From the NCBI GenBank assembly GCA_965208675.1, contig OZ242351.1, positions 4,672,001 through 4,736,000 of the forward strand: 64,000 bases of DNA, given 5' to 3'. The notes under the pieces were generated by a model. That model was given only the letters and a program-made list of their open reading frames with translations, ran no database searches and was not told the DNA's origin. The translations under genes were made by a program, and so were the position numbers. This document shows, in pieces, positions 39,344-62,697 of this stretch. This DNA is from Candidatus Poribacteria bacterium (GTDB lineage: Bacteria > Poribacteria > WGA-4E > PCPOR2b). Within the stretch, counting starts at the first letter, position 1; each line of letters begins with the position of its first letter.

Positions 39344-40099
39344 TTGCCGCGCGCTTCGTATTATTATCAACCCGCAGCGGAAGAATCGCCGGAAAACCTG
39401 CTTTATATGCGTCTGATTGATGAACAGTACATTAAAACGCCGTGCTACGGTGTCCCTCGAATGACGGACTGGCTATGTGATAATGGCCACGCTGTCAACC
39501 GGAAACGGATTGCTCGGTTGATGCGAAAGATGGACTTAGTTGCCATCTATCCCAAGCCCCGTCTCTCCAAGCACGGCAGGCCGTCGAAAAAGTATGCTTA
39601 TCTACTGAAGGATTCAATTATCACTCGACCGGACCAGGTATGGGCAACTGATATCACCTATATCCGTTTGAACACCGGCTTTGTGTATCTAGTGGCGATT
39701 ATGGATTGGTACTCTCGATATGTGTTATCATGGGAATTGTCAAATACACTAGACGTTTACTTTTGTCTATCGGCACTGGAACGGGCATTGAGTTGTTCTA
39801 GCCCTTTGATATTCAATAGCGACCAGGGCGCGCAGTTCACGTCAGATGCCTTTACGACTCGGCTTGAATCGGCTAACATTGCCATCAGTTGGACTGGTGC
39901 TGGCAGCGTGTTTGACAACATTTTAATTGAGCGGCTCTGGCGGACCGTCAAGTATGAACATGTGTATCTTCACGCTTATGACTCAGTTCACGCGGTTTGG
40001 TGTGGCTTGAACAACTATTTCAAGTTTTATAATGAGGAGCGGCTTCATACGTCGCTCAATACTAGAACACCTCATGAGGTGTATTTTCAAAAATCCTAG
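39344..40099 (+). CDS. IS3 transposase OrfB (DDE)
   Basis: WATDITY, NSDQGAQFTS, IERLWRTVKYE; frame open back to the A9 run, -1 relative to orfA. Confidence 0.95.
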   Translation: MPRASYYYQPAAEESPENLLYMRLIDEQYIKTPCYGVPRMTDWLCDNGHAVNRKRIARLMRKMDLVAIYPKPRLSKHGRPSKKYAYLLKDSIITRPDQVWATDITYIRLNTGFVYLVAIMDWYSRYVLSWELSNTLDVYFCLSALERALSCSSPLIFNSDQGAQFTSDAFTTRLESANIAISWTGAGSVFDNILIERLWRTVKYEHVYLHAYDSVHAVWCGLNNYFKFYNEERLHTSLNTRTPHEVYFQKS

Positions 40100-40179: not shown

Positions 40180-40626
40180 TGTTTCCGTCCCCTTGCTAAG
40201 GGGAAGATAGAGGGGGTTGGTAGCGTATCGTTGAGAACAAGGAAGACTATCGCCTTCGCTATTCGCTCAGTTGATCCTTCCTTGTTCGGTCGGTTGATCC
40301 TTCGCTATTCGCTCAATTGATCCTTCCTTGTTAAGGAGGGGGATAATGTTTCCGTCCCTTTACTAGGGGGAAGATAGAGGGGGTTGGTAGCGTATCGTTG
40401 GGTATGGTGAAAACTATCGTCCTCCCTATTCGGTCGGTTGATCCTTCGCTATTCGCTCAGTTGATCCCTCCTTGTTAAGGAGGGGAATAATGTTTCCGTC
40501 CCCTTGCTAAGGGGAAGATCGAGGGGGTTGGCGGCGAATCATTGGGAATAAGGAAGACTATCGCCCTCCCTGTTCGGTCGGTTGATCCTTCGCTATTCGC
40601 TCAATTGATCTCCCTTGGCAGGGGGA
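40180..40626. repeat. three tandem ~145-165-bp composite REP units
   Basis: Each unit reads TGTTTCCGTCCCCTT.CTAAGGGGAAGAT.GAGGGGGTTGG...ACTATCG..TTCG..CAGTTGATCC..CCTTG.TAAGGAGGGG; starts near 40180, 40347, 40491. Confidence 0.9.
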
Positions 40627-42424: not shown

Positions 42425-42479
42425 TTAATGAAGTCCTTTCAGTCCAGGGTTTTAGCGTGGGGGTTGAGAATATGGAAGA

Positions 42480-42845
42480 GACTATCGCCTTCGCTATTCA
42501 CTCAGTTGATCCCTCCCTGTTCGGTCGGTTGATCATACCCAACCTACGACCCTGTAGGAGCGATTTCCTAATCGCGACATTGTTCATTCCGTGCGACCTA
42601 ACCTGTGTGATTTTTAACCTCCCCTTACCCCTCCTTGGTAAGGAGGGGGATGATGCATGTGTTCGGTTCTCATTTAACCCCTCGCTTGTGAGCGTCCTAA
42701 TAATCCTCCCCCTTTCTAAGGGGGAGATTGAGGGGGTTGGTAGCGTATCGTTGAGAACAAGGAAGACTATCGCCTTCGCTATTCACTCAGTTGATCCTTC
42801 GCTATTCGCTCAGTCGATCCCTCCTTATCAAGGCGGGGAATGATG
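42480..42845. repeat. composite REP cluster at left edge of defence island
   Basis: GACTATCGCCTTCGCTATTC motif twice, GTAGGAGCGATTTCCTAATCGCGAC, CCCCTCCTTGGTAAGGAGGGG and CCCCCTTTCTAAGGGGG hairpins; same module order as 57010-57265 and 58040-58312. Confidence 0.85.
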
Positions 42846-45800
42846 ATTTTGTTCGGTTTCTGGATTTTCAATCACCAGCCATGTGACGAGTTCGAAGTCA
42901 GTTGCTCCGCTAATCTGATCGGTTAAAAGCGGCAGGGCGCCGCCGCGGCCTGACGTGAGGTTGTCGAAGGCGCGTTTTTTGTAGGTCTGGGCTATAGATT
43001 TTACGGTCTTTTCAAGAAGGTCGTCGTATTGGGACATTTCTGCCCCGTTAGCTGTGTATTCGTCGAACAGCGCACAGAGTTCGTCATACGGTCTGTTTTT
43101 GCCAGAGCAGAGTTGGCGGTACATTTCCAGAACCTGTTTGGGATAGGCAAATGAAAAGCGCACCATGCCATCATTTCGAATATAGACGAGGAAGTAGGGT
43201 TGGGTCGGATTCAATTTCACGTTTTCGTCCGACTCGGTTTTCTGGCGGAGGCAGAAGATGACTCCGGGTTGAATTATCGGGTCATTTGGAGGCGGCGGCA
43301 CGACAGCATAGAGCCCAAAAGGCGATTCCTCAAGTTTTTTCCGGTTACTTTCAATGTATTTTATGAGTTCTATGCGAAAATCGTCAAGCGTGAATTCGTT
43401 AAGGTTGACGTTTTCGTCAAAGTCTTCAAGGTCAAGGACTTCATCCTTGAGCCGAAGCAGTTGTTGATCACGGTATCGGAGATCGCCTTCAATCACATCG
43501 TGAAGTGCATCGGGATCGAGCAGGTTATCTCCTTGCGTAGCGGTAACGTCCACGAGCGCCATCCGGGCTTCAACCCGGTTTTTAAGGTTTATGTAACGAT
43601 TTAGATCGTCCGTGGGCCAGAAGTTGACAAGATGCACACGCTGGTTGACGCTTCCGATCCGATCAATCCGCCCGAAACGCTGTATGATGCGCACCGGGTT
43701 CCAGTGAATGTCGTAATTTATCACGTAGTCGCAGTCTTGGAGGTTTTGTCCTTCGGAGATACAGTCGGTGCCGATGAGCAAATCAATCTCCTCGTTCTGG
43801 GGCATGGATTCGTCGCTGGCACGGTTCTTCGCAATCGGGGAGAAGTTGGTGAGAATGTCGATGAAGTTGGTCCTGCCGAGCGTGGTTTTGTTCGCGCCTC
43901 CGCCTGTCACCATGCCGACGTGAATTTTCAGTTCAGTCCGCGCCCATTCGTGCAGCGCGCCGTAGAGGTAGTCGGCGGTGTCGGCAAATGCAGTGAATAC
44001 AAGCACCTTGCGATTCGGTGTATTTTCCTTCGTGGTTGTCGGATTATTTACCTTCGTCTCAACTAGTTCTTTAAGTTTAGCGAGTTTAGCATCACGGTCT
44101 ATGTTAATTTCTTTTGCCGAACGGAAGGGGCCTTCAAGCTGGTCTCGGTCATGTTGTAAATCCTCCAGCCACCGCTCAACGTCAAGGTGCGCCATCTTGA
44201 ACTTTAGGCTTTTACCAACTTCGAATGCATCCTGCCGTTCTTCGTCATCATCTGCGCCAATATTCATCTCCGCCGGATCTAGTTCAAGGTCTTCGGCTTG
44301 AGACTTTTGAAACAGTCGAATTCGCTTCTCCAAATCCTCAATCTTATCGAGCGTCCGCTTCAACGTAATCCTGAATGAATGTACGGAACTTTCCAACCGT
44401 TTAAGGAAGTTTACCTTCATCATGCCGATTAGGTAGTGCTCGCGGTCGCGCTGTGTAAAGTTATTGACCATTACTAGGTCGTATTTGGACTCGTATTCGG
44501 GGCGGAGATATTTGGTCGGATTGTAGAGGGAGAGCTGATACTGCGAAATCTCCGCGTTTAGCTCGTCGTAAGACATGAACTCACCGCGTGTATCAATATC
44601 CGGATAAACGGGTTCGGGTTTACTACGCTCCGGGAACCCGCCCAATTCCTTCAGTGAGCTAGGATAGTATTTTTCAATTTGTTTCCGGGAACGGGCGATT
44701 GTCAACCCGTCTAGCAACCTGAAGAAGGAGGTGCTTAGAATTTCAAGCAACCGTTGACTGCGGCGTACTCCATCCTGTTTTGCCCACCTGTTAAAGTCGG
44801 TTTGGGCGGCTGAGATGGTTTCTCTCAGGTTGGCGACGCCAAGCGATTCCTCGAAAGCGTCGTCACGCTCCTCCGTGAGAAAGTAGAGTTGGTTCCGTAG
44901 ATCCCTTAGGTCGTTGTTGACGGGCGTCGCGGACAGCAGCAGCATCTTGGTTTTTACGCCGCTCTTGACGATGTCTTCCATCAGCCGCTCGTAGCGGGAT
45001 CGGCTAATTGGAACCCCGTCCTCGTCCCGTTTTCCGCGGGTGTTGTTTCGGAAGTTGTGCGACTCGTCGATAACCACCAGCCCGTAGTTTCCCCAGTTAA
45101 ACGATGCAAGGTTAATATCGCCCGACTTACCGCTGCTCCGGCTCAGGTCGGTGTGCGACAGAACAGTGTAACCGAAGCGGTCGTTGGGAAACGGATTAAA
45201 CGTGTTTCCGGTGTGGGCTTGGTAGAGCGTCCAGTTCTCGCGCAATTTCTTGGGGCACAGCACCAGCACGTTTTCGTTGCGGAGTTCAAAGTACTTTATC
45301 ACCGCCAGCGCCTCGAACGTCTTGCCCAAACCGACGCTGTCAGCGATGATGCAGCCGTTGTGCGTCAAGATTTTATTGATGGCGCCTTTCACGCCGTCCT
45401 TCTGGAATTCATAGAGAACTTTCCAGATTTGGGTATCAACCAGTTGCGGCGGTTCGTCCAGCAGCCCCCACCCCTCCTGATCGCCCAAAAATTTTTCAAA
45501 AACGTGAAAAAGTGTTTTGTAGTATATGAATTCCGGGTCGTGATTCTCATAGAGCTGTTTTAAGTAGGTCAACACCTGTTCCTTAACGTCATCAACCCGA
45601 TTCTTGTCGTTCCAGAGTTCATCAAACCACAATTTCAAGTCGTTCAGGTCGCGCTTGTCTTCCACCGTCAGATTGAGTTCAATGTTACCCGCTGTTTGAC
45701 TTAACCCTAAACCCCGAACGGTAAAATTTGAACTGCCGAGGATGGCGTTTTCAACGCCGTTCTTAGCGATGTGGTACATCTTGCCGTGCAGCAAATTTGA

Positions 45801-46160
45801 TTCACGGATTGACCGCACCTCTACTTTCTCCTCAATCCAGTCAGCGCATTCCCGTGCCACCTGCTTGAGTTGAAGTTGGTTCCTCAAACGCAATCCGTCG
45901 CTATTTATGATGAAAGATTTCTTTTCAGATTTCTCGGAGTCTAGCCGATTAATGAATCGGGGTTCGCCGAATAGAAAGCGAAGGTCCCTGATTTGATACA
46001 GGGATGATTTCAACGCCTCGAAGGCGTAAATTGTAAAGTAAGCGGATACAACCGAGAGTGACGAACCGTTTTCGATTTGTGACTTCAGAAACTCGCCAAC
46101 CGTACCCCGCTCGCGGTTATCGCGGATGCCGGACGGGAATAGCGTCGTGTTTTCTGGCAT
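42828..46160 (-). CDS. PLD-nuclease/SNF2-like helicase (restriction-associated)
   Basis: N-terminal LHGKMY...GSSNFT (PLD); ADSVGLGKT, IDESHNFRN, LSATP, SEGQNLQ, QRFGRIDRIG. Confidence 0.92.
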   Translation of the reverse strand: MPENTTLFPSGIRDNRERGTVGEFLKSQIENGSSLSVVSAYFTIYAFEALKSSLYQIRDLRFLFGEPRFINRLDSEKSEKKSFIINSDGLRLRNQLQLKQVARECADWIEEKVEVRSIRESNLLHGKMYHIAKNGVENAILGSSNFTVRGLGLSQTAGNIELNLTVEDKRDLNDLKLWFDELWNDKNRVDDVKEQVLTYLKQLYENHDPEFIYYKTLFHVFEKFLGDQEGWGLLDEPPQLVDTQIWKVLYEFQKDGVKGAINKILTHNGCIIADSVGLGKTFEALAVIKYFELRNENVLVLCPKKLRENWTLYQAHTGNTFNPFPNDRFGYTVLSHTDLSRSSGKSGDINLASFNWGNYGLVVIDESHNFRNNTRGKRDEDGVPISRSRYERLMEDIVKSGVKTKMLLLSATPVNNDLRDLRNQLYFLTEERDDAFEESLGVANLRETISAAQTDFNRWAKQDGVRRSQRLLEILSTSFFRLLDGLTIARSRKQIEKYYPSSLKELGGFPERSKPEPVYPDIDTRGEFMSYDELNAEISQYQLSLYNPTKYLRPEYESKYDLVMVNNFTQRDREHYLIGMMKVNFLKRLESSVHSFRITLKRTLDKIEDLEKRIRLFQKSQAEDLELDPAEMNIGADDDEERQDAFEVGKSLKFKMAHLDVERWLEDLQHDRDQLEGPFRSAKEINIDRDAKLAKLKELVETKVNNPTTTKENTPNRKVLVFTAFADTADYLYGALHEWARTELKIHVGMVTGGGANKTTLGRTNFIDILTNFSPIAKNRASDESMPQNEEIDLLIGTDCISEGQNLQDCDYVINYDIHWNPVRIIQRFGRIDRIGSVNQRVHLVNFWPTDDLNRYINLKNRVEARMALVDVTATQGDNLLDPDALHDVIEGDLRYRDQQLLRLKDEVLDLEDFDENVNLNEFTLDDFRIELIKYIESNRKKLEESPFGLYAVVPPPPNDPIIQPGVIFCLRQKTESDENVKLNPTQPYFLVYIRNDGMVRFSFAYPKQVLEMYRQLCSGKNRPYDELCALFDEYTANGAEMSQYDDLLEKTVKSIAQTYKKRAFDNLTSGRGGALPLLTDQISGATDFELVTWLVIENPETEQNHHSPP

Positions 46161-46268
46161 ATTCTTCTCCTATGGGTCGGTGTCTGCTATTTTGGGGCTT
46201 TGAACTGTCTGAATCGCGGATTGGCGCGGATTTTGCGGATTACGCAGATTAAAACGTCGTAATCTGCG

Positions 46269-46670
46269 TCAATTTTTATCGGATTGCGTGAGTATTAACC
46301 TTTTGAATGTCAATTTTTTCGATCCGAAATTAATCAATAATCCGACTTTCAACCGGTATGTTCTCAAGTAATTTAACGCTTGGGCGATGTGCACGTCTTC
46401 CAGGTCGGTTATCGCTTTTAATTCCACCAATACCTTTTCTTCGACCACGAAATCTGCTCGACGAGTACCGATTGGTTCCGGCACATCTTTGTAGAAAATA
46501 TCTCGCTCCATTTCGCGCGCAAATGCCAAGCCTGCCCGCGCCAACTCAATTGCTAATCCTCGCTAATTTATCACCTCTTGAAAGCCGTTTCCTAAAAACT
46601 TGTGCACTTCAAACGCAGCCCCAATAATCTTTTCGGTGATATCCCTGTGTTTTAGATTGCCGCTCGTCAT
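46269..46670 (-). pseudogene. GxxExxY (PD-(D/E)XK-like) protein with in-frame TAG
   Basis: MTSGNLKHRDITEKIIGAAFEVHKFLGNGFQEVIN*RGLA; TAG at 46565-46563 where the paralog has CAG. Confidence 0.88.
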
Positions 46671-47233
46671 GCGTATGGGGTGTTGGTATGTATTCTTCTT
46701 TGTCTGAATCGCGGATTGGCGCGGATTAAGGGATTACACGGATTGAGAAGACCACACTATCAACCTGCTAACCGTGGGAGGGGACCTCCCCCGATTGGAT
46801 TAGCGATGAATCGGGACTGCCCTCAATCGCATCGGGGTATTGGTGCCTGCCCAAAGACAATAATGCCCAACAGCAATCATGAGCAGGGAAACCACAAGTA
46901 TCTTAATCCCGATTTATAGGGGGTTACCCCGACAAAAATTAACCATTTGCAGAGATGGATCACATCGCTTTACACCTTCTTTTACATGAGGCGAAATGTG
47001 GTGAATCTTATAGCCGTTTACATTCATATTTACACACATTCAGATACCCCCCTGATAAGGGGGGCTAGGGGGGTTGACACCTCTTTTTGATCGGAGTGAA
47101 GGTAATGTGTAATTTTTAGTTGCAGTGACTATAGATTTAATGAGACGCTCCGAACCGGTGCCGTTCGGAAACCGCGCCTACCGCGGAGGACGAAAGCGTC
47201 TATTTTTTTGGTGTTCACCATAATTTAGGGCAC

Positions 47234-48001
47234 TCATGTGACATCGAGGAACAGTTTACGACCATTTAACGGCTGTACCGGCCGGTTGTTGCCGTGGATA
47301 ATCGCTTTAAATGCCGCAATTTGCGATTCAGACATCTCAGCGGGTGTTGTGAGCACAATCCATTTGACACCCTCTGTACATGGCGGGGTCGTCAGTGAAC
47401 CGTCGTAGCGGTAGGTGCTAGGAAAAGTCTGTATTGCCGGATCTCGCATCTGTCCATTGGACGAGAGCATCAAATCAAGATCGATAACGACATTCTCAAT
47501 GCGCTGTTTTTCGAGCGGCGAGGACGGTAAGGAAGCCCAGATTGGGTCGAATGCAGGGTGGTGACGACCACTCTCGATTAACAAACCCACGACTGCTAAA
47601 TCGCCCGCTTCACTTTCGTGAACGAGGTGCATTTCCATGTCAAACGATTTACCTTCTACCGTATGTTCGCTAGGTGCATGGAAATGGAATTGGAGCAGTT
47701 GATAGTCGGTGCCATCGATCTGGATTCGGCTGCCTTCAGGATACGCCACTTCAATCGTGTGTCCATTATGGTGGACGTTCACACTCGTTGCAGTGTAATA
47801 CTCATAGAAGATTGGCGAAAGTTGGGTTGGCATTGGGTTCACAATGTCGATAGGTGATTGGTGCGTACCCTCGCCGCAAAGGATATATTCCTGATTAAGG
47901 TGCCCCCAAACATCCGGCCCATTCTCTGCTGCATAACCCCATTCCGCCTTGTGAGTATGGGCGGGAAATTTTTTTGTCCTATCACAACCTGTTATACACA
48001 T
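47234..48001 (-). CDS. alpha-class carbonic anhydrase (signal peptide apparently broken)
   Basis: WGY....GP..W, QSPIDI, QFHFH.PSEH, EMHLVH, YDGSLTTPPCTEGV, NNRPVQPLNGR. Confidence 0.93.
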   Translation of the reverse strand: MCITGCDRTKKFPAHTHKAEWGYAAENGPDVWGHLNQEYILCGEGTHQSPIDIVNPMPTQLSPIFYEYYTATSVNVHHNGHTIEVAYPEGSRIQIDGTDYQLLQFHFHAPSEHTVEGKSFDMEMHLVHESEAGDLAVVGLLIESGRHHPAFDPIWASLPSSPLEKQRIENVVIDLDLMLSSNGQMRDPAIQTFPSTYRYDGSLTTPPCTEGVKWIVLTTPAEMSESQIAAFKAIIHGNNRPVQPLNGRKLFLDVT

Positions 48002-48303
48002 AATAAATCAGATAACGAAGATAAATCTCTTCGCAATACAAGGACTCTGGAAATCGAGCCATGTTAGTAGTAAATAGACTTGGAATTGCGTCGTCATCAA
48101 TCAGATAACCTCCGAGTTTTTTATCGGCAACGTTCAGAATTTGTTTGAGAGAAGATATGGAGAAAACGGGAAAACGAGAAGCTGACAAAGATTTTGTTTG
48201 TCTGAATCGCGGATAGCCGCGGGTTTTACGGATAACGCAGAACAGTCTGAATCACGGATTGCCGCGGATTAAAGGATTACACGGATTAAAGGCGTTATTT
48301 GAA

Positions 48304-48705
48304 TCAGCGGCGATTCGGTTGCGTGAGAATTAACCTTTTGAATGTTAATTTTTTCGATCCGAAATTAATCAATAATCCGACTTCCAACCGATATGTTCTC
48401 AAGTAATTTAACGCTTGGGCGATGTGCACGTCTTCCAACTCGGTTATCGCTTTTAATTCCACCAACACCTTTTCTTCGACCACGAAATCTGCCCGACGAG
48501 TACCGATGGGTTCCTGCACATCTTTGTAGAAAATATCCCGCTCCATTTCGCGCACAAATACCAAACCCGCCCGTGCCAACTCAATCGCTAATCCTCGCTG
48601 ATATATCACCTCTAGAAAGCCGTTTCCCAAAAACTTGTGCACTTCAAACGCAGCCCCGATAATCTTTTCGGTAATATCGCTGTATTTTAGATTGGCGTTC
48701 GTCAT
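48304..48705 (-). CDS. GxxExxY (PD-(D/E)XK-like) protein, intact
   Basis: LGNGFLEVIYQ, RADFVVEEKVLVELKA, QALNYL, GLLINFG; ATG at 48705. Confidence 0.93.
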   Translation of the reverse strand: MTNANLKYSDITEKIIGAAFEVHKFLGNGFLEVIYQRGLAIELARAGLVFVREMERDIFYKDVQEPIGTRRADFVVEEKVLVELKAITELEDVHIAQALNYLRTYRLEVGLLINFGSKKLTFKRLILTQPNRR

Positions 48706-49097
48706 TCGTATGGGGTGTTGGTATGTATTCTTCTTTGTCTGAATCGCGGATTGGCGCGGATTTTGCGGATAACACAGATAGAAGAAAACCACGATTTTGG
48801 GGTTTGTTCCGCAAAACTCGGTATTGCGATTTCATTGTTGATATTCCAACAGAGATACATAACTGTCAGACACATCTCCGAAGTCGAAATTTGACAAAAC
48901 TTGACAAAATTTGACAGATTTTGTTTTTTCTCCGCAATGCACTCATTCATCGCCGTAGAGCCGCAATTGTCTGAATCGCGGATTGGCGCGGATTTTGCGG
49001 ATAACACAGATAGAAGAAAACCATCGCATTTGGGTTCGTTTCGCAACAAGGGGTGTCAGGTTTTCATCGTCAATGTGTCACAGCGGTCTGTAATTTG

Positions 49098-49928
49098 TCA
49101 CGCCTGCGGCGGCGACAGCATGGCGGTGATGTCTGGCGGCAGCTTCACCTCATGTTTCTGCTCGAAGTCCGGGACGCTTTCGTAGTCGTTTTGGAACGCG
49201 GCAATAACATTTAATCCCAAATTCTCAGCGGTAATCAGGTCTGCTTTGGCTTTTTCCCATTCCGCCAGGATTAACCACGCTTCACCACGATTGTAATAGG
49301 CATCGGCATAGTCTGGTTTCAGTTGCACGGCTTTAGTATAATCTACGATGGCACGCTCAACCTCCCTCTTTTTTACATAGGTTACGCCGCGATTGCTATA
49401 GGCTTCCGTTAACTTGGTATTTAGCGCTAATGCCTTGTTAAAATCTACGATAGCGCGGTCATATTCTCCTGTACGGAGGTAGGCTGTCCCCCGATTGTAA
49501 TAAGGTTCCGCATAATCCGGTTTCAACGCAAGTGCCTTGTTAAAGTCATCAATGGCTCGGTCATAATCCTTCTTGTCGCGGTAAGTGCTGCCACGATTAT
49601 TATAGGCTTGTGCATACACCGGCTTCAGTTGAATCGCCATATTATAGTCTTCGATAGCCCGGTCATACTTGGCTATCTCGTGCCGAACAACGCCACGATT
49701 GTTGTAGGCTATTGCATAATTAGGATTAATCTCTATTGCCTTGGTAAAATGTTCAATGGCATGGTCATAGTCTCGTGCGTTGAGATAATCAAGGCCGAGA
49801 TTGTTTAAGATTGCGGCGTCGCGCCGCTTTTGGCGCGCTTCTGGTCCGCGATGAATTTCGCCGAGTTCTGGTGCGTGTTCCTTCATATAAGCTTGATAAT
49901 CAAATTCCGCTTCCTTTATAGTATTCAT
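49098..49928 (-). CDS. TPR protein with short non-TPR (antitoxin-like?) N-terminus
   Basis: About 6 TPRs (AY.NRG..Y....YDRAI.D..KA..L.P); start overlaps the end of brnT. Confidence 0.88.
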   Translation of the reverse strand: MNTIKEAEFDYQAYMKEHAPELGEIHRGPEARQKRRDAAILNNLGLDYLNARDYDHAIEHFTKAIEINPNYAIAYNNRGVVRHEIAKYDRAIEDYNMAIQLKPVYAQAYNNRGSTYRDKKDYDRAIDDFNKALALKPDYAEPYYNRGTAYLRTGEYDRAIVDFNKALALNTKLTEAYSNRGVTYVKKREVERAIVDYTKAVQLKPDYADAYYNRGEAWLILAEWEKAKADLITAENLGLNVIAAFQNDYESVPDFEQKHEVKLPPDITAMLSPPQA

Positions 49929-50184
49929 CGACCAATCTCCTTTCCGCATCAAAAGCAGTGATTAAACGGTAAACTGGCAATTCTTCGTCGGAATAAACCA
50001 CTGCCAACAGTCGATTATCGACGGTCTTTCCTACAAGCATCCACCGGTCGTCGTGCCCGGTGGGAGCGGGGATTTCGTATCCATTTGGATCATCAAATGC
50101 AGAGACTACCTCATGAAATTGGACACCGTGTTTTCTTTCCACTTCTTTAAATTTGTCTGCATCCCATAAAAATCCGATATCCAT
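49900..50184 (-). CDS. BrnT family toxin
   Basis: F.WD..K.....KHGV.F.E...AF.DP, RW..VG, LLAVVY, RLITA. Confidence 0.85.
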   Translation of the reverse strand: MDIGFLWDADKFKEVERKHGVQFHEVVSAFDDPNGYEIPAPTGHDDRWMLVGKTVDNRLLAVVYSDEELPVYRLITAFDAERRLVDEYYKGSGI

Positions 50185-50575
50185 GTGATGGAGTCCATGT
50201 ATTTTACCAAATTATTGTAGAATTGCGTTGAGATTAGAAATCATCGGGATGCTGCACGATGACATGGTGAGGATAATTTCTTCCACAAATGTGTGTGCTT
50301 TCTTGTCTGAATTGCGGATTGAGGAAAAACACGGATTGAAGAATCCGCGTTATCCCCTTAATCCGTTTAATCTGTGATTCAGACAATTGGCGCCTCATTT
50401 ATAATCCATTTATTGTCTGAATCGCGGATAGCCACGGATTTTACGGAAAACACAGATTGAATAAATTCATCATATTTGGTTCGTTTGGCTTCGTTTCGCA
50501 AAAATGGGAATTACGTTTTTCATTGCGGCAACTTCTCTTATTCATCGCCAAGGAGGTACGTTAGTCTGTCATCGT

Positions 50576-52978
50576 TCACTCCTGCGATGGCGTCAGCATC
50601 GCAGCGATGTCCGCCGGTAGCTTCACCCCATTTCTCCGCTCGAAGTCCGGGACACTTACGTAGTCGCTATGAAATGAAGCGATAATATTTTTCCCCATGT
50701 CTCTGGCAATCATCAGATCTGATTTCGCTTTCTCCCATTCTCCTACGTGTAACCACGCCTCACCTCGATAATTATAGGCATTCGAATCATTGGGATTCAG
50801 TTCTATGGCTTTGGTGAAGTCTACGATGGCACTGTCATTCTCTCCGACTTTACGGTAAGCGACGCCGCGATTACAATAATAATGGGCCTCATCAGGTTTC
50901 AATTCTATTGCTACATTAAAGTCAACAATCGCGCAGTCCAATTGGCCTCTGCTGGCGAAAACAACACCGCGACTGTTATAGGCCAGGGCAAGGTCGGGTT
51001 TGAGTTGTATCGCTTTGGCATAGTCTGTGACGGCATGCTTAGAATCACTTTTGTTCCTGTAAGCATTGCCACGATTGTAATAAGCTATAGTATAATTGGG
51101 ATCGAGTTCTATTGCTTTGGTGTAGTCTGTGATAGCGCGGTCATGATTATCCTTCTGATCGTAGGCATTGCCGCGATTGAAATAGGCTTCGGGATAATCG
51201 GGTTTGAGTTGTATCGCTTTGTCGTAGTCTGCGATGGCACGGTCATTATCGCCCTTGTTGAAATGTGCCCTGCCTCGATAATAATATGCTAAGGCTTCCC
51301 TTGGTTCCATGTCTATCACTTGAGTATAGTCTGCAACAGCGCAATTATAATCGCCGATATTATAATAAGCCATGCCTCGACAAAAATAAGCCTCAGTATA
51401 ATCGGATTTTAGTTGTAAGGCTTTTCCGAAGTCGGCTACGGCCGAGTCAAAATTGTTCATATCATTGTAAGTAGATCCACGGTAGAAAAAAGAGTTCGCG
51501 TTGTAGGGGTTGAGTTGTATCGCGCTGCTAAAGTTCGAAATTGCCAATTCGAAATGGTGCTCTCTGGCGTGAACCATGCCACTCCTGAAAAAGGCTTCCT
51601 CATCTTTGGGATTCAGTTGGAGAGTTTTAGTATAGTCTTGAATGGCACGGTCTGAAGCGCCGTTATCGTCGAAAGCAACACCACGCCTGAAATAGGCTTC
51701 CCCGTAATCGTGTTCCAACTCTATCGCAGTGTTATAGTCTTCAATGGCGCGGTTAAGTTCGCCCTTGGCACTGTAGGCATTACCGCGATTGTAATAGGCG
51801 TTTGCATAATCGGATTTGAGGTGGATCGCCCAACTAAAGTCTGAAATAGCCGCATTATACTGATTTTTCTTGGCCTTAGCAACTCCGCGATTGTTGTAAG
51901 CCTTGGCACAATTTGGGTTAAGTTTTATTGAGGTGTTGAAATCGGCAATGGCCGAGTCATGTTCGTTTCTGTCATTATAAACAGTGCCGCGATTGTTATA
52001 AGTTTCGGCACTATTAGGGTTGAGTTCCAACGCTTTGTTATAGTCTTCGATGGCGTGGTTAAGTTCTCCAATACTACTGTAAGCCGCTCCGCGATTGCTA
52101 TACGCCTCAACAAAAGCGGGGTAGAGTTGTATCGCAATTTTGAAATCTTCAATATCGGCGCTATGCTCCCCCAGATGATTGAAGGCAACGCCGCGATTGT
52201 TATAAACTGGGGACAGTTCCAAATTCAGTCTTAGGACATTGGTGTAATGACTAATGGCTTCTTTGCATGCCTTTCGTGCTTCTTTAGAGGTCTTTGCTTT
52301 GGCCGCTTCACGCTGTAATCTAAGCCCTCTATAATACTCTCTGTATGCTATTCCATTATCGCTCTGGCTTCTAATAAATCCATGGATATCTTTGTAAATG
52401 GTCTTGGCAGATACTTCGTCTTCCAGCACCTCCCGTAGATATTTCAATATGAGTAGTTTCACGACTGATGGAATACAGATTTCCTTATATTCCAACTCAA
52501 TATAACCCTTCGGTGGTTCAACGAATACGCTCTTTTGGGCACGGACGCGAACTTCTGGTGTTTGGGGCTTGTGGCGGATTTTCTCTAATTCATCCGTTTC
52601 CTGCAATATAATTACTCTGCCACATTCAGCCGGCGTTCCATAACAAGCAAAGAAGAGGGCAACGGTATAGTCAGTTGTAAAATCAATTAAGTTGGTTTTA
52701 CCGCCATAGTGCTGGATTTCAGTGAGGATGTCAAAATATTCTGTTTTGTCTGTATACTCTTTTGCCTCCGCTACAATGGAGTCCTGGATTTCCTTTAAGT
52801 TAGAGTATCTAGCATTAACATTTTCTAGCTCGCGGTATAGGTTCGAAGATATTTTCTCATAGCATTCAGGTTCACCGCGGAAGATGTAAGAACCGTCTGC
52901 AGATTTTTCCTCTATAGCGTGGACGATGTCCTGAACTGTGCGGGGCATATCATTGGAGGTATTGGATCGATTTGACAT
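50576..52978 (-). CDS. FRG-domain protein with ~15 TPRs
   Basis: YIFRGE, QHYGGKTNLIDFT.D..VALFFAC, R..AQKSVF; long TPR array. Confidence 0.92.
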   Translation of the reverse strand: MSNRSNTSNDMPRTVQDIVHAIEEKSADGSYIFRGEPECYEKISSNLYRELENVNARYSNLKEIQDSIVAEAKEYTDKTEYFDILTEIQHYGGKTNLIDFTTDYTVALFFACYGTPAECGRVIILQETDELEKIRHKPQTPEVRVRAQKSVFVEPPKGYIELEYKEICIPSVVKLLILKYLREVLEDEVSAKTIYKDIHGFIRSQSDNGIAYREYYRGLRLQREAAKAKTSKEARKACKEAISHYTNVLRLNLELSPVYNNRGVAFNHLGEHSADIEDFKIAIQLYPAFVEAYSNRGAAYSSIGELNHAIEDYNKALELNPNSAETYNNRGTVYNDRNEHDSAIADFNTSIKLNPNCAKAYNNRGVAKAKKNQYNAAISDFSWAIHLKSDYANAYYNRGNAYSAKGELNRAIEDYNTAIELEHDYGEAYFRRGVAFDDNGASDRAIQDYTKTLQLNPKDEEAFFRSGMVHAREHHFELAISNFSSAIQLNPYNANSFFYRGSTYNDMNNFDSAVADFGKALQLKSDYTEAYFCRGMAYYNIGDYNCAVADYTQVIDMEPREALAYYYRGRAHFNKGDNDRAIADYDKAIQLKPDYPEAYFNRGNAYDQKDNHDRAITDYTKAIELDPNYTIAYYNRGNAYRNKSDSKHAVTDYAKAIQLKPDLALAYNSRGVVFASRGQLDCAIVDFNVAIELKPDEAHYYCNRGVAYRKVGENDSAIVDFTKAIELNPNDSNAYNYRGEAWLHVGEWEKAKSDLMIARDMGKNIIASFHSDYVSVPDFERRNGVKLPADIAAMLTPSQE

Positions 52979-53097
52979 TTCTATTCATCCTCCTGCAGGA
53001 TGCTGATTTCCTTATTGTCCGAATCGCAGATTGCCGCGGATTAAAGGATTACATGGATTTATATGTCCGCTGTCAGCTTCATCCATCAATCCTTGAT

Positions 53098-56000
53098 TTA
53101 AACGGTATTTTCCTCCACAATCGCAATTTCTTCAGGGGTTAGATCGTACAATGAGTATACAACCTGATCAATCTCATTTTCAAGTTCGGATACATCGGCG
53201 TCTGGGTCGGCGCGTTTGGCAGCGAGGATTTTATTAACTAGGTTACTGATAAATGATTTCTGCGCCGAATTGGCAGCAGGGATTGGAATCTGTCTCATGT
53301 AGTCGCTAAATGCGCGAAGTGCCGCCCCTCCCAATCTATTCGACACCAGCGAATAAAACCACTCCACAGATTTAGAATTAAGTAATCCACATAGCCAAGT
53401 TTCCTCTGTAGGGATAAAATAACAGGAATTACTACAGAAGAAACCAGTCGTATCAACTGTGAAACTTTGGTGTTGGAATATATCAGGATAAACAACTTTC
53501 GGTAGCAGGAAATCACGCCAATAATCTGATGCATATCGACTTAGAGCATACCACGGAACACGCCCTTGTTTTACTTCTGGGCGTTTCTTTAATTTTCTCT
53601 CATACTTTTTCAGATAGGCAAAAATTGCGGGATACTCTTCAATTGGTAAATCCCATCCAACGTAACACAGGTAATGTCCTTTATCTTCAATTGTCCAGCG
53701 TTTCACGTCGCGTCCACGCAAAAATGGTTTTAACACTTGGATGGATGATGGATGATCCGCAATGAGTTGATTCTGCACCGGTTGGTCCACAACAAACGCT
53801 TCGTTCAAACCTGTTACAACACCGCGATAGAACCTTTCTTTCACATATTCTCCCAATGGTATACCCACTTTGCGGAGTATATCCAACAGATTCAATACGG
53901 CGGGAGGTGCGAGCTGCCATCCGTCAGCGGTTAAGGCATTTTGTGGCATTTTAAATCTCTGCCTCCGAAAAACTGTCCCAAGTTCGTCAATGGGCGGTCC
54001 CGGTTGCCAATTCAGAGCGCTAAGATGGTTCGCGTCAGAGAGGGTCTTGGACATAGTAATAATGCTAGCATCTACACCGGCCGAAAATACGCGACCCGCG
54101 CCAAAGTCAATGATATTGGAAAATGTACAATTACGAGTGAGAAATCCACGAAGTTTCTTGCCGTAGGCAGAACGGAAATATTTATTAGAAGAGATGTAGG
54201 TCAAGACTCCGTTGTTTCGGAGCAGCCGGCAGCCCTGTTCATAGAAATAGACGTAGAGATCTGCTACACCTGAATAACAGTCGTATAGGGTTTTTAGCGT
54301 CGGTTTCAGTGCTTTAATTTTCTCCTGGCGTACGTACGGTGGATTGCCGATTACGACGTCAAATCCGTCCTTGATACTGAACATCCATTCGGGATTAAAA
54401 AAGCGAGCTACGGAATTCTGGTCATAAGGGTCCCAATCTGCAATTTCACGCGCGGCCTCGCTTGACAGTCCTAAATCACTTAGTATTCCACTAATTTCTG
54501 TACGGAGTTCTGCATCGCGTTCGCGATAGCGCTTTTTTGTGGCGGGAGTGCGTGCCGTGAAGTGTCTCCGGCGAACCTCTTGCAGTTCATCTTCTCTTTT
54601 TCGAATCTCTGAATCTCGGAGCGTCCGTTGACCTGTAATATCAATCAATGTGTTTGCTGCCACAAACTTGGTTTCTAGATTTGGTAGCGGACGTACCCCA
54701 CGATTTTCCTGAGAGTCGTCCATCTTCTGATTCACCACTAGCGATATAAAGAATCGGAGTTTTGCAATTTGCACGGCGATAGGCTGTATATCCACACCAT
54801 AGATGCAGTTTTCGATGAGGTAGAGTTTCCGTCCGTAATCCAGTTCATTCCGTTCAAACGCCTCGTTGATGTTGTCAATTTCGCGCTCTAGGTCGTGGAC
54901 AGTATTCTCACGTACCGTGCTATCGTCAATCTGTTCTGCGATTTTGATGGTGCGATTCACTTTGTCAATCTGCCGCTGTCGCCACTGCTCGTTGCCCGGG
55001 TCAAGTTTCCCCAAGATAAACACCAGTTTGTGCAGCACACCCATCGGAAAGGCACCGGAACCGCAAGCGGGGTCAAGTATTCTGAGGGAGTCAACTGCGT
55101 TTATCAACGCTTCAGTTTCGTCGTCGTTAAAACGGTGCGGTTCGTCATTATAGGCGAGAAGATGCCGGAGGTTAGCTTCTATTTGGTCTTTTTGCTCATC
55201 AGAGAGTTTTACTCCACGAGCATCAAATTGCGTTTGGACAGGTTCTACACGCCCATCCAAATCCAGTTGCGCGGACGGGGCAGTCGGGGCAAGGGCGTTA
55301 CGGGATTCGTGATAGGCGATGCATTTATGCTTTAGGTAGGCAATGAGTGATTCATCGGTCATGTAGTTGACGATTTCACGGGGGGTGTAGTAGGAGCCAC
55401 TCTGCTTACGGGCAGAAGTACCGGTTTCGGGGTTATAGGCGGCGAGCAGGTTCTCAAACACTTTGCCGAGCAGTTCCGGGTCAAGTGCAACCTCCTCTTC
55501 GATTGGCGTATTCTCGGCAACCGTGAATTTGTACCTATCGAGAATATTGATCAGGCCGCGTACTTTGTAATCCTTGCCGCGTGTGCCGTAAGCGGCGTTG
55601 AGGTCAACGCTTTGTTCATCGGAGAAGAATAGGAAATTTGGGACAATTAACGGGTTTTTTTTATGGTCGGAAAAGCCATCAACGCGTAGAATTTTTTTAG
55701 GGACATCTTTGTCTTCCTTGTCCAGACATTCAAACAAACCGCCGTTAAGGAAAGGAATGTCACCAAAATGTTTGAACGCGCTTTGCTTATCCTTGAAACA
55801 ATTTTCGTACCGGTATAGGGAATGCGCCATGTAGTTTTGATCTCTATCGCCTGATTGCTTCGCCTGAATCCTGAATTTGCGGTTATTGGGTTTTTCTTCG
55901 GTGTTCATTTCCTGATTCAGTGTAGCGAAGAACAGGTTCTGTAGGATAGCCTTGTAGTAGGTACTCTGCTCGGGTTCCGTGTTATCAAGGATTTTTGCAA

Positions 56001-56862
56001 TTTCCCTTGGGTAAAAGAGCGCATCCGAAATTAACCCTTTTTCCTTGATGAACCAGACGAAAATCAGCCGTGTTATCAGCCGGATCACGCTGGTGGCGTT
56101 ACGCACCTCGAAATCTTTCCCTGCATCTTCAGGGAAAGTTACTTGATTAACCGCCCAAAAATACCAGTTCGCAATCTCTTTGAAGAAGCGTTTGTTGAGT
56201 ACCTCAGTGTCGAGCGTCTTTTTCCACGCTTCATGCAACGCCGCGAAGTCCGTGAAACCGTGCTGGCGCTGCAGTTGACTTAGTGACAGATCGAATTAGA
56301 TCTCAATGTGTGCGCGGTGGGGGTTAGGGAATTCGATGTCTTTAATGAGGGTCACCTTTTCGAGGACATCTTTGGATAGGTCGCGTTTGTGCAACCGGCG
56401 GTCGATTACAGCGAAGGTGAGCGTATCACCGTGCTGGAAAAGGACCAGGGCGGGTATCATAAACAGTCTGTTGATTTCGCGAGTGATATCCGACAGTTGG
56501 GTGCGGGTGTATTCGCACTTTTGTAGTTTTAGGGCGAAGAAGAGGTAGGATTCAATACGGATTTTATCTACAACGTTGCCTTCGAAGCCAAATGTAGTTT
56601 GGGTGCTCTGGACGATTTCCTCCTCAGTCAGTTGGAAGAGGAAGTCGATTGATTCCCACTCGCTTACTAGACCACGTTCCCGGTTCATCGTGTTATCTGA
56701 GTCGAAGTGCTCAACAAAGTTGTCGGCGGTATTCGGTTCAAGGGATAGCGTCCGTTGGCTTCGGTAGCCGAGGATGTTGAGAAGATTTCGGGCGTTGTCG
56801 GCGTGGTCGACGTTCGTGAAGCGTTGTAGGGCTGTTTTGATTTCTTGTTTGGATGTGGTCAT
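53098..56862 (-). pseudogene. Eco57I-like type II R-M N6-adenine methyltransferase split by one in-frame TAA
   Basis: ORFs 56296-56862 and 53098-56238 share a frame (PHRAHIEI*FDLSLSQLQRQHGFTDFAALHEAW); FLNGGLF, GSYYTPRE, LDPACGSGAF, IGNPPY, TaqI_C-like TRD. Confidence 0.88.
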
Positions 56863-56894: not shown

Positions 56895-58345
56895 TAAGGG
56901 CAGGCACGAGACCTGCCCCTACAAATGGATTTTGTCAATTCCTGTAGGGGCAATCCTTGTGGTTGCCCTTTTGTCGTCGGGAATCGGAATTTCGTCCTAC
57001 CGAGACGATCCTGTAGGAGCGAATTCTGAATCGCGACACGGATTGTTAATTCTTCCCGTTCGACAGAATCTGTCTGTATATGAACCTCCCCTAGCCCCTC
57101 CTTGGTAAGGAGGGGAATGGTGTTTGCGTTCGGTTCTCATTCAACCACTCGCCTGTATGTGTATCGTAATAATCCTCCCCGTTACTAAACGGGAGTTAGA
57201 CTGGTTGGTGGCGAATCGTCGGGAATCGGGAAGACTATCGCCTTCGCTATTCGCTCAGTTGATCCCGTTGGCAATGGGATCAACCGAGTGAATAACGAGG
57301 GCTATGGTCCTCTCTAAAGCTCACGCAAGCTGACAACTCTCAACATCTTTACAAGAATAAACATGAAAAGCGTTGGGTTACGCTAGCTTTTGATAAATTT
57401 TGAAATTCATTTATTTGGCGAAACCGATGGGGTATTTGAGCTATATTTCACAAAACCCGCTCAACCCAACCTACAAAAACCAAAAAAACTGATTTACTTA
57501 TTTTGTGAGCATTTGGTATATGCAAAAAAGCACCAAATACCGCCTAAACCTAGACAGGGTGCGGGTTTAGGGCGTTGAGCATTTGAAAAAATAAGTTGAG
57601 AATACTCATTTTTCGACATCTTCCCACTGATAAAAAACGTTGAGTTAATACGCCCCGCCTGGTTCTCCCTTAACTACGAAATCAACCGAGCGAATAGCGA
57701 GGGCGTAGTCCTCTTTACAGTTCACGCATGTTCACAACTCTCAACATCATTACAAGAATAAACATGAAAAGCGTTGGGTTTCGCCTTCGGCTCTACCCAA
57801 CCTACGAAAGCAAAACAAATTTGCTCATTATGTGAGCATTTGGTTATGCAAAAAAGTGCCAAATAGGGCTTAACGCTAGACAGGGTGCGGGTTTCGGGCG
57901 TTGAGCATTTGTGAGCATTTGAAAAAATAAGTTGAGAATGCTCATTTTTCGACATGTTCGCACGAAAAAAAATGTTGGGTTAAAGACAAGACTATCGTCT
58001 TCGCTATTCGCTCAGTTGATCCCTCCTACCAATACAGCTCTGTAGGAGCGATTTCCGAATCGCGACACAGATTGTTAATTCTTCCCGTTCGACAGAATCC
58101 GTCTGTATATGAACCTCCCCTAACCCCTCCTTGGTAAGGAGGGGAATGATACGTTTTTTCGGTTCTCATTCAACCGTTCGGCTGTGCGTGTCTTGATAAT
58201 CCTCCCCTTTACTAAGGGGGAGCTAGAGGGGGTTGGTTGCGTATGGTTGGGAATCGGGAAGACTATCGCCTTCGCTATTCGCTCAGTTGATCCCTCCTTG
58301 CTAAGGAGGGGAATGAGGCTTGTGTTCAGTTCTTATTCAACCTCC
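56895..58345. repeat. 1.45-kb non-coding mosaic of REP/REPIN modules and duplications
   Basis: 57010-57265 resembles 58040-58295; 57280-57620 resembles 57681-57955; GTAG-type hairpin pair at 56898-56969. Confidence 0.9.
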
Positions 58346-58393: not shown

Positions 58394-59674
58394 TCACCTC
58401 GTGTCGAGATGGGTGGTGTACCAGAGGCTGCCTGTTGGAATCTCCTCTGAATCACGGTTGCGTACTGCGGGATCGTCGCTGGCTCGGCGGATTGTGGAGT
58501 AGCCGTCCTCGCCCTTGTCTAGGATCCAGACCTCTTGCGGTTCTAACAGATCGACAAAATACGGTTGATGGGTCGTAATGAAGACTTGGGATCCGCCTCT
58601 GCGTCCGGTGACGTATTCACGAAACTGTTTGGCGAGCGATTCCAAGAGTTTGTGGTACAAGCCGTTTTCCGGTTCTTCGATACAGAGGAACGGAGGCGGC
58701 GCCGGGTCTTTTAGCAGCAGCAAATAGGCGAATAGCTTAAGTGTTCCGTCGGACATCTGCTGGGCGTAAAACGGCGCCTGAAAGCCTTTGTCGTTGAACC
58801 TGAGCAGCAGACGCCCGTCACTGGTTCTTTCCGTGTCGATTTGGTCTACCCCCGGAATCTTGTCGGCAATCTCTTTGAGTATGGCACCGAATCGGCGCGG
58901 ATGTTCGCGTTCCATGAATTGGACGACGTTGCCGAGGTTATCGCCGTGAATGTTGAGATGCTGCTGGGGACCGGCGCGCGGCAGGCTGCGCGCCGCGTCC
59001 GGAGTAAAGTAGCTGAGATACCAGCCTTCAATGAATTGCCGGAAAGCCGAGATTCGCGGGTGTTGTTTCAGCGCGCCGAGCGTGGCGATGCCGAGCTTGC
59101 TCCGATCTTCCAATTCGATGATTTCGGTCTGGCTGGATTCATCCGCAATAATCAGTTTGATGAGTTCCGGGAAGTCGAGTTGCTCCATCTTTTCGTCAAT
59201 CTGATGACCCGCCTGTTCGCCCTTCCACGCGACGCCTTTGCCGCCGTTCAGGAACAAGAACGAGAATGGGCGGCCGTATTTCTGGCCTTTGCGCCTCTGT
59301 CTGAGGCGCTCTTTCAACACATACGGGCGCCCGGTCTCCTCTACCGCGATGGCGATCTCGTAGGTCATGGGCCGGGCGTTTCCGTGCTCTCTATAGTATA
59401 CCTCAAACTCGATGGGCTCCAACTCGCCTTGGGTACGGATCTGCTCGAACCCGCCGCGTGCGCGTGTACCGCACGCCTCCGCTACGCCGGACTTGAGGGC
59501 GTCTGCAAGGAATCCGAACGCATCGAAAAGCGCGCTTTTGCCGACGCCGTTCTTGCCAATGACCGCGGTCATGAGCGTGAGCGGTTGTATTTCCCGTTGG
59601 TTCCAAAGGCGCCCCAACGTCACATCTTTGAGTACCTTGAAGTTTTTTACTCTGAAGCCTTCGATTTTTGCCAT
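58394..59674 (-). CDS. ABC/SMC-like ATPase (AAA_21 type)
   Basis: IEGFRVKNFKVL, GKNGVGKS, MSDGT, IEEPENGL, FITTHQPY. Confidence 0.92.
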   Translation of the reverse strand: MAKIEGFRVKNFKVLKDVTLGRLWNQREIQPLTLMTAVIGKNGVGKSALFDAFGFLADALKSGVAEACGTRARGGFEQIRTQGELEPIEFEVYYREHGNARPMTYEIAIAVEETGRPYVLKERLRQRRKGQKYGRPFSFLFLNGGKGVAWKGEQAGHQIDEKMEQLDFPELIKLIIADESSQTEIIELEDRSKLGIATLGALKQHPRISAFRQFIEGWYLSYFTPDAARSLPRAGPQQHLNIHGDNLGNVVQFMEREHPRRFGAILKEIADKIPGVDQIDTERTSDGRLLLRFNDKGFQAPFYAQQMSDGTLKLFAYLLLLKDPAPPPFLCIEEPENGLYHKLLESLAKQFREYVTGRRGGSQVFITTHQPYFVDLLEPQEVWILDKGEDGYSTIRRASDDPAVRNRDSEEIPTGSLWYTTHLDTR

Positions 59675-59721
59675 GATACTGTGTTGGTTGGTGGAGCGTG
59701 ATTGATTCTGCGGCTACAAAA

Positions 59722-61943: not shown

Positions 61944-62083
61944 ATCAATTTCCGTTCATTTTCGATAAAGTTTACCGACTGTGCTTTCCACTACAACCCG
62001 GTATGTGATGCCATGAATATTTTCCTATTGATGACTTTTTTGGTTGATTATGCTCGAATTGACCGTTGAATCTTGGAAATTCG

Positions 62084-62679: not shown

Positions 62680-62697
62680 TATATTTCTCCTCTATGT

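Follow-up and report, generated by a model that had tools for sequence, protein, structure and literature searches.

Terminal arms of a GxxExxY mini-element coincide with gene exchange points in a Poribacteria restriction-modification locus

How do unrelated genes come to be stacked inside a restriction-modification module, and what is the short repeat that stands in the gaps between them? The question is raised by a 64,000-nt stretch of a Candidatus Poribacteria genome (G000, 4.89 Mb, a single contig; positions G000:C1:4672001-4736000, hereafter the window), where a ~48-nt repeat is present in ten copies (46206-53062) between a helicase-nuclease gene and a DNA methyltransferase gene, among units that include genes of the GxxExxY (PDDEXK_3) family. 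We identify the repeat as a terminal arm belonging to a mini-element that consists of an arm, a GxxExxY gene and an inverted arm. Differences between G000 and its sister genome G002 break at the arm core, and one toxin-antitoxin (TA) unit occupies different arm-bounded slots in the two genomes. On balance, we lean towards a dedicated mechanism in which the arms of the mini-element act as crossover sites for gene units.

The arm repeat and its mini-element

Each arm begins TGTCTGAATC; the core, TGTCTGAATCGCGGATT, is followed by three or four GGATT-type units ~10 nt apart, a periodicity that is visible directly in the sequence and whose spacing would place the units on one face of the helix. Read along the genes, the arm ends ...GATTCAGACA, and the next start codon follows 10-119 nt further on. 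The previous stop codon lies 12-113 nt before the arm in five of the six gaps, the carbonic anhydrase gap being the exception (485 nt). With up to three mismatches allowed, the 18-mer TGTCTGAATCGCGGATTG matches the window 11 times against 0.05 expected, a count that none of 100 shuffles reaches. The matches lie on the plus strand at 46206, 46701, 48199, 48244, 48736, 48968, 50304, 50414 and 53016, and on the minus strand at 50385-50368 (the inverted copy) and 47334-47317 (which resembles the core and falls within the carbonic anhydrase gene). A search with an nhmmer profile of 20 copies from this genome delimits the arms as follows.

46206..46254, plus: arm 1, 14 nt past the stop of a GxxExxY pseudogene
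46701..46748, plus: arm 2, delimited by nhmmer; its TGTCTG end is the point where G002 homology restarts
48199..48241 and 48245..48291, plus: arms 3 and 4 in tandem, arm 4 lying 12 nt past the stop of the intact GxxExxY gene
48736..48784, plus: arm 5, 30 nt upstream of the intact GxxExxY start codon
48968..49016, plus: arm 6, 81 nt past the stop of a TPR gene
50304..50385 (50304-50341 plus, 50385-50341 minus): inverted arm pair, a doublet resembling a miniature inverted-repeat transposable element (MITE) or a REPIN, conserved in G001 and G002
50414..50462, plus: arm, 113 nt past the FRG-TPR stop
53016..53062, plus: arm filling the 119-nt gap from the methyltransferase stop to the FRG-TPR start

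At least one arm stands in every gap between the helicase and methyltransferase genes, just as an initial annotation of this DNA had described, and its statement that no full copy occurs elsewhere in the 64 kb also holds, the profile finding no further significant arm in the window. As single-stranded DNA the inverted doublet folds (50300-50390; -20.1 kcal/mol, z = -5.5), and solo arms do not (z from -1.48 to +0.50 versus shuffles in four arms, one of them taken on both strands). A consensus scan of 46000-53300 gives 17 sigma-70-like promoter sites against 14.4 ± 3.7 in shuffles and nine terminator-like sites against 7.8 ± 2.4. It places no promoter-like site within any arm, and one terminator-like stem (46242-46269) begins in the inner end of arm 1. 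Rfam yields no match at E ≤ 1 in 45900-53300. We also rejected a CRISPR (clustered regularly interspaced short palindromic repeats) array in the window, given that the inner half of the repeats varies and whole genes lie between them.

The identity of the repeat emerges from other phyla. Proteins 75-83% identical to the window GxxExxY are encoded at 80 public loci, by record title in Bacteroidota, Ignavibacteriales, Chloroflexota, cyanobacteria, Latescibacterota, Spirochaetes, Proteobacteria and others. The exact 9-mer GTCTGAATC occurs within 200 nt upstream, with its complement within 250 nt downstream, at 39 of the 80 loci; 23 have it on one side and 18 on neither, and by arithmetic the chance expectation is about 0.0008 per 200 nt. 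A profile made exclusively from G000 arms matches at most 150 nt ahead of the gene or 250 nt beyond it at 70 of 73 non-Poribacteria loci, and 46 of the 73 have the inverted layout, in which the gene is preceded by a plus arm and followed by a minus arm; the match density is 173 in 34.2 kb beside the gene versus 65 in 193 kb elsewhere. Complete elements measure about 470-520 bp, taken as outer-end distances of the most compact copies. The intact gene of the window has a canonical arm after its stop codon and is preceded by a 30-nt leader and an arm of the same orientation, so that its repeats are direct, not inverted, a layout seen at five of the 73 other loci and at two of seven Poribacteria loci.

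Sequence divergence ties the two components together as well. The clades formed by 24 Poribacteria GxxExxY proteins match the type of the flanking units (GCGGATT, CAGGAT, GTGAT, TTCGTG), and each clade mixes host families. Placed on the GxxExxY tree, the unit-type labels require eight changes against a shuffled mean of 14.4, and none of 200 shuffles attains so few; the gene and its arms thus evolve as a single unit. The association of the repeat with GxxExxY, first proposed from the window alone, is thus upheld for the element family by the G000-only profile, the inverted layout and the matching clades.

Among 45 complete elements from other phyla, 19 have their left host flank repeated on the right (alignment scores 17.5-93 at +1 per match; loci L063, L069, L070, L075, L080, L081, L088, L096, L098, L103, L106, L114, L115, L119, L120, L125, L130, L134 and L137). 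Because the duplicated flank is often the 3' end of a histidine-kinase gene, the interrupted gene keeps its full tail. The flank alignments show no short target duplication at complete elements. Flank duplications of this kind, unlike the short ones of ordinary transposons, would fit the integration of a circle by recombination within the gene tail.

The window protein scores above the curated cut-offs of the family (131.1 bits to TIGR04256, cut-off 35; 125.5 bits to PF13366, cut-off 22), and E32, D73, E83 and K85 are invariant in 37 aligned homologues. Its AlphaFold2 model (pLDDT 91.9) has an alpha-beta core in a minimal PD-(D/E)XK nuclease fold. Foldseek against the PDB returns no match below E 0.001, the nearest folds being weak ones, Cas4 SSO0001 (4ic1) and the Holliday-junction resolvase Hjc (2wiw), at E of about 1e-3 to 3e-3; a sequence search of solved structures gives no match at E ≤ 1. 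The model confidently predicts a minimal PD-(D/E)XK fold in which the catalytic residues are kept. A 2012 survey of PD-(D/E)XK proteins (PMC3424549) enters GxxExxY/PDDEXK_3 as 'Unknown' with multiple transfers.

Gene units and strain differences at the arm core

All genes at 42828-56238 lie on the minus strand (Pfam, PADLOC). In coordinate order, the locus contains:

42828..46160, minus: PLD(HKD)-SNF2 helicase-nuclease (Pfam PLDc_2, SNF2-rel_dom, Helicase_C; PADLOC HKD+Snf2 3.2e-127)
46269..46671, minus: GxxExxY (PDDEXK_3) pseudogene (Pfam), 89% identical to the intact copy
47011..47131, no strand: insertion of an unrelated repeat, 121 nt, missing at the G002 site
47234..48188, minus: carbonic anhydrase cassette, comprising an open reading frame (ORF) at 47234-48001 (alpha-type, Pfam Carb_anhydrase 4.4e-42) and an upstream 68-aa ORF at 47982-48188
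48304..48705, minus: intact GxxExxY gene, 133 aa (Pfam PF13366 1.7e-36; TIGR04256 2.3e-38)
48785..48967, no strand: gene-less unit with three phased TTGACAAA-type repeats
49098..49952, minus: TPR protein ORF (Pfam TPR families), overlapped by a BrnT toxin-like ORF at 49900-50184 (BrnT_toxin 2.7e-15)
50576..52978, minus: FRG-domain and TPR protein, 800 aa (Pfam FRG, TPR; PADLOC PDC-S15)
53098..56238, minus: Eco57I/MmeI-type N6-adenine DNA methyltransferase with a TaqI_C specificity domain (Pfam; PADLOC REase_MTase_IIG 2.9e-108)

The PLD-SNF2 helicase and the Eco57I-type methyltransferase, both present and co-oriented (Pfam, PADLOC), belong to a restriction-modification-like module of which the helicase-nuclease is the last gene, with arm 1 sitting 45 nt 5' of its start codon. 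The initial annotation had recognized both flanking genes, and we set their placement right: the helicase-nuclease (42828-46160) is on the low-coordinate side and the methyltransferase (53098-56238) on the high-coordinate side. Arm-bounded units split this module by 6.9 kb in G000 and by 11.7 kb in G002. The GxxExxY copy at 46269-46671 is a pseudogene by virtue of an in-frame TAG.

The orthologous locus of G002, whose flanking genes are 90-94% identical, reveals how these units differ between sister genomes. Collinearity of the two sequences extends past the helicase start and ends ~19 nt into arm 1; homology restarts exactly at the first base of arm 2, its TGTCTG end. Between arms 1 and 2 lies the GxxExxY pseudogene in G000 and, in G002, a ParE-like toxin ORF, an 81-aa ORF and a truncated arm. 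A sequence 89% identical over 617 nt to this TA unit of G002 stands at G000:1208097-1208714, next to hsdR and with an arm on either side. The orthologous site of G002 lacks the TA unit, and its two arms are separated by 239 nt. At its 3' end the TA unit is directly followed by an arm in 9 of 11 homologous loci of other genomes. Elsewhere in the array, G002 has a single arm where G000 has arms 3-5 and the intact GxxExxY gene, a difference of 537 nt, and the gene-less unit and the TPR unit stand in the opposite order to that of the G000 window.

The gene-less unit, with TTGACAAA/TGTAAAC-type repeats of ~11-nt period, follows arms at three G000 clusters (the window, L003 near 6100-7200 and L001 near 7700). 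At 1.81 Mb there are four copies in G000 against two in G002, and homology ends there 25 nt into an arm. In run X7, from a different sponge metagenome, a contig joins 46719 to 48745, arm core to arm core; among contigs from four metagenome runs we used this join only (side 137 nt), most of the joints listed being short-sided (18-41 nt) or lying in TPR repeats and therefore ignored. The carbonic anhydrase is arm-flanked in five genomes of another genus as well (85-87% identical, order partly as in the window), and two further genomes have copies 71-72% identical without arms. One slot replacement and one relocation, together with several insertions or deletions that are bounded by arms, thus lend the cassette reading partial support. 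For the cassette idea of the initial annotation, slot replacement at the arm core and relocation of the TA unit speak in favour, and breakpoints that lie off the arms, described below, do not fit it.

The carbonic anhydrase block carries further arm-like sequence. The core-like 18-mer at 47317-47334 (minus strand, two mismatches) lies in the 3' part of the coding region and forms a 36-nt inverted repeat with arm 2, and the arm profile also matches inside the block in four of the five arm-flanked homologues of the other genus (L160, L161, L163 and L164). The 121-nt insertion at 47011-47131 may be another highly repeated small element, since the bin that holds it (46888-47134) has the top summed word depth in all four metagenome runs (644, 649, 134 and 733).

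Arms across the genome and its relatives

Across the whole genome the profile gives 25 matches at E ≤ 1e-3, of which 20 are its own seeds, and two more at E 0.007-0.012, all within six clusters. Counting these 27 and one weak match (E 0.39), 26 of 28 arms read ...GATTCAGACA in the direction of the neighbouring genes, and the two exceptions are the inner partners of inverted pairs. All six clusters stand beside restriction-modification or other defence-type genes by Pfam, a label that we gave post hoc, after the Pfam matches had been seen. Besides the window, the clusters are:

0.47 Mb: STAND NTPase, AlbA_2 and HNH genes
1.21 Mb: hsdR and a ParE pair
1.81 Mb: a paralogous arrangement of DUF4391/Eco57I methyltransferase, arm and FRG-TPR, with Fic genes
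3.21 Mb: DUF1156 methylase and DUF499
3.51 Mb: Eco57I methylase, AAA_21 and Schlafen/AlbA_2 genes

A whole hsdR gene of 3.3 kb (L002 2485-5652 compared with L142) is present in G000 and gone from the orthologous G002 site, one boundary lying ~120 nt from an arm cluster. In the window itself, additional defence-type genes beyond the methyltransferase, at 58394-63312, indicate that the array lies within a larger defence island; they encode an AAA_21 ATPase (PADLOC HEC-01A, 8e-184), a ParA-like ATPase, a Schlafen/AlbA_2 and HATPase_c_4 protein and a MazF/PemK toxin.

Among 41 related genomes the core, with at most one mismatch, occurs in 30, from three of four families, the reversed control pattern giving 0; PF13366 genes occur in 26. 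In 123 distinct arms from three families, positions 1-17 are conserved at 86-100% and the inner half is variable, the mean information being 1.65 bits over positions 1-20 and 0.88 over positions 21-48, and orthologous genes within the genus are 79-90% identical. Three GxxExxY genes are found in G000, two in the window and a third at 0.96 Mb with a different arm unit type, and three relatives (G004, G009 and G034) have the gene and no core of the window's type. Poribacteria arms have multiplied without the gene, as single copies, tandems and inverted doublets, in the stop-to-start gaps of co-directional genes and in variable regions. Since arms persist in genomes without the gene, the repeat does not need a GxxExxY gene in the same genome, and we rejected a genome-level dependence on the strength of these gene-free, arm-bearing relatives.

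At L053 (G035:C15), positions 850-2700 hold tandem 87-nt units, each an arm with a conserved ~40-nt tail, and ~117-nt inverted doublets around a GxxExxY gene. A CRISPR-like interpretation of these 87-nt arrays was rejected, as the ~40-nt 'spacers' are themselves repeated. A second intergenic repeat family of the window has ~23-nt phased units of TTCGCTATTCGCTCAGTTGATCC type (6381-6542, 8375-8430, 40244-40610, 42479-42842, 57232-57287 and 57989-58315), often beside GC-rich palindromes of CCCCTCCTTGGTAAGGAGGGG type (38819, 42612, 57079 and 58108); copies lie just beyond both ends of the helicase-to-methyltransferase module.

Mechanism, alternatives and known systems

Based on the above data, the mechanism that we slightly favour starts from the units of this locus, each of which consists, in the direction of transcription, of a leader, one or more genes and an arm. 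The outer 17-27 nt, where the arm is strongly conserved, would be the crossover point, and units between two cores could be replaced, deleted, duplicated or moved to other arm-marked slots. The GxxExxY nuclease may bind the phased units and cut at or near the TGTCTG end; host recombination or repair would then join cores, and a unit with one arm would leave and re-enter at another arm. That the core is a site rather than mere homology is argued by the conservation of its positions 1-17, which exceeds the identity of genes within the genus, and by a crossover within ~19 nt, a length that is short for RecA-dependent exchange. The stronger version, an integrase-free and nuclease-driven cassette system in which GxxExxY cuts the arm core, host repair joins cores and any gene with an arm is mobile, we put forward tentatively and regard as rather doubtful. 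Equally speculative is the notion that such cassettes, stacked in one orientation in Poribacteria restriction-modification operons, would parallel IntI/attC in function, with an enzyme and a site that are unrelated to it, and would descend from a selfish mini-element found in many bacterial phyla.

Several observations weigh against arms acting as dedicated crossover sites, and some of them favour a different account, in which the arms would be passive relics, copies of the mini-element that have decayed or lack the gene and that inserted singly into stop-to-start gaps. Ordinary RecA recombination among dispersed repeats and defence-island turnover would do the rest, with no dedicated cassette mechanism and no present role for the nuclease. 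Of the six arm clusters in G000, five lack a GxxExxY gene, and the arms beside the third GxxExxY gene are of another sub-type. Of 29 relatives with at least two cores, ten have no clear GxxExxY gene, among them G040 (115 cores, no GxxExxY gene) and G029 (18 cores), and only 8 of 30 PF13366 loci in relatives have window-type arms within 1.5 kb. A specificity of the repeat for GxxExxY within the lineage is contradicted by these counts, and the enrichment of the profile near GxxExxY genes that had been predicted is found across phyla but not among the G000 clusters. In a 32-kb region of G040 (G040:C2:8001-46000; L144, L145), most gaps hold many arms in both orientations, among unrelated genes (two Uma2, putative endonuclease, genes, Phd, HAD, nonribosomal peptide synthetase-like, PALP, Ldh_2 and a DDE transposase). 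This pattern looks like repeated insertion of small inverted-arm elements, not like one site per cassette. One of the two window copies of GxxExxY is a pseudogene, and some breakpoints lie away from arms: 49964 in the window, a 2-kb AAA_21 segment at 3.51 Mb (L005) and the hsdR gene that G002 lacks. The X7 join falls inside a 55-nt stretch that precedes both GxxExxY copies in identical form, and it could have arisen by ordinary homologous recombination. Part of the array may have been inherited or transferred as a block, given that the order of carbonic anhydrase, GxxExxY and TPR is partly common to two genera; linkage alone would also make gene and arms co-diverge; and no circular form or excision product was seen in the data, which consist of assembled contigs only. 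Nevertheless, passive relics do not readily account for a slot replacement with its crossover inside a core so short for RecA, for outer positions that stay more conserved than orthologous genes in 123 arms from three families, for the strict orientation of 26 of 28 arms, or for a TA unit that keeps its 3' arm at 9 of 11 loci. We therefore consider this account possible, although we doubt that it suffices.

The position of the arms also invites a cis-regulatory explanation, in which phased binding sites (an operator, an activator site or a 5'-untranslated-region element) would mainly co-regulate defence genes. An arm lies 10-119 nt before start codons in constant orientation relative to the gene, the ~10-nt period would align its units on the helix, and all six clusters are in defence contexts. 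However, across phyla the same sequence forms an inverted pair around one small gene, gene-less tandem arrays and inverted doublets exist, the arms of G040 flank metabolic genes too, and neither an excess of sigma-70-like promoters or terminators nor an Rfam match is seen; we regard a mainly regulatory role as improbable. An integron-like or Xer-like system, with a tyrosine or serine recombinase encoded elsewhere acting on the core and GxxExxY as a frequent passenger cassette, would be in keeping with co-oriented units that each end in a conserved site, with the TA cassettes among them and with an Xer-like tyrosine recombinase gene at 1.12 Mb. Against it stand the score of the best integron integrase candidate, the lack of an attC-like imperfect palindrome in solo arms (fold z -1.5 to +0.5) and the tie of the arm to GxxExxY across phyla, with co-divergence of the two, and we give such a system hardly any credence.

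The comparison with integrons, which the initial annotation had drawn along with that to REP/RAYT, is instructive. Like integrons and clusters of attC sites lacking integron integrases (CALIN), the array has co-oriented units, a conserved 3' site, TA cassettes, and differences and relocations that break at the site. The arms lack an attC-like fold, however, and differ further in being homologous to the inverted ends of a nuclease mini-element and in forming an array within a restriction-modification operon. The best TIGR02249 (IntI) match in the genome, at 1.12 Mb, scores 41 bits against a cut-off of 265. We rejected the attC/IntI reading on the integrase score and the lack of attC-like folding.

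REP (repetitive extragenic palindromic) and REPIN sequences with their RAYT transposases, reportedly described by Nunvar in 2010 and by Bertels and Rainey in 2011, share with the arms that short intergenic repeats occur as singlets and inverted doublets, far outnumber a small repeat-flanked enzyme gene and co-diverge with the enzyme lineage. They differ in that RAYT is an HUH/Y1 transposase, whereas the enzyme here is a 133-aa PD-(D/E)XK nuclease; that a REP is a hairpin, whereas solo arms do not fold; and that REPs are spread genome-wide, whereas arms are clustered in islands. No Y1/HUH transposase lies in an arm cluster: the genome has four PF01797 matches, at 0.19, 2.03, 2.07 and 3.52 Mb, the nearest 7 kb from the 3.51-Mb cluster. 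The REP/RAYT analogy was rejected on enzyme class and palindromy, so that neither of the two original analogies survives.

With MITEs and autonomous transposons bounded by terminal inverted repeats, the mini-element shares inverted ends of ~45 nt, a conserved TGT...ACA tip, subterminal repeated motifs, gene-less doublets (50304-50385) and local clustering of copies. In contrast to these, only a minimal nuclease lies between the arms, with no DDE or other transposase; the duplication at 19 of 45 complete elements is one of host flank, with no short target duplication seen; and solo arms in one orientation predominate here. The claim that no integrase or transposase is nearby holds for an integron integrase and needs amending for transposases, as an ORF of IS3 type (an insertion sequence, IS; rve, HTH_21) lies at 39344-40099, 6 kb away and outside the array. 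No transposase of IS type was found to be linked with the arms. A candidate IS inverted repeat that flanks the ORF at 39344-40099 is by eye unlike the arm core, and an inverted copy of this ORF, diverged to 74-75% identity, is at 1-938.

Free-standing homing endonuclease genes, such as that of the PD-(D/E)XK enzyme I-Ssp6803I, offer another parallel: a tiny nuclease gene acting as selfish DNA, proteins 75-83% identical across phyla and copies at the 3' ends of conserved genes such as those of histidine kinases. To our knowledge, such genes have neither terminal repeats nor gene-less derivatives, in contrast to the mini-element. IS26 translocatable units and Acinetobacter pdif modules likewise form arrays of directly oriented short elements interleaved with unrelated cargo, in which a module travels together with one copy to a site where another is already present; they use a DDE transposase (IS26) or XerC/D, and no such enzyme is tied to the arms here.

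A full-text literature search, with subscription journals and supplementary files outside its reach, found no published description of the element or the repeat. Among the matches listed, papers that name GxxExxY include none about an element, PMC8934634 being one of them as far as the consulted parts of that paper go. Searches with the core 9- and 10-mers gave primers and unrelated sequences among the matches listed, and the repeat is not described among the matches listed for repeats in Poribacteria restriction-modification systems.

GxxExxY/PDDEXK_3 is a very common small protein whose function is listed as unknown, and its tie to the terminal arms suggests a testable role, that of the enzyme of a mobile mini-element. 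Arguing for this role are arm derivatives that lack the gene, the co-divergence of nuclease clade and arm type, and near-identical proteins in many phyla. In Poribacteria, the arms coincide with exchange points of TA pairs, the nuclease gene and other genes within restriction-modification loci, which would be a new route for the assembly of defence islands in these uncultured sponge symbionts. Should the core prove to be where the nuclease works, the arrays would represent a cassette system without a tyrosine recombinase.

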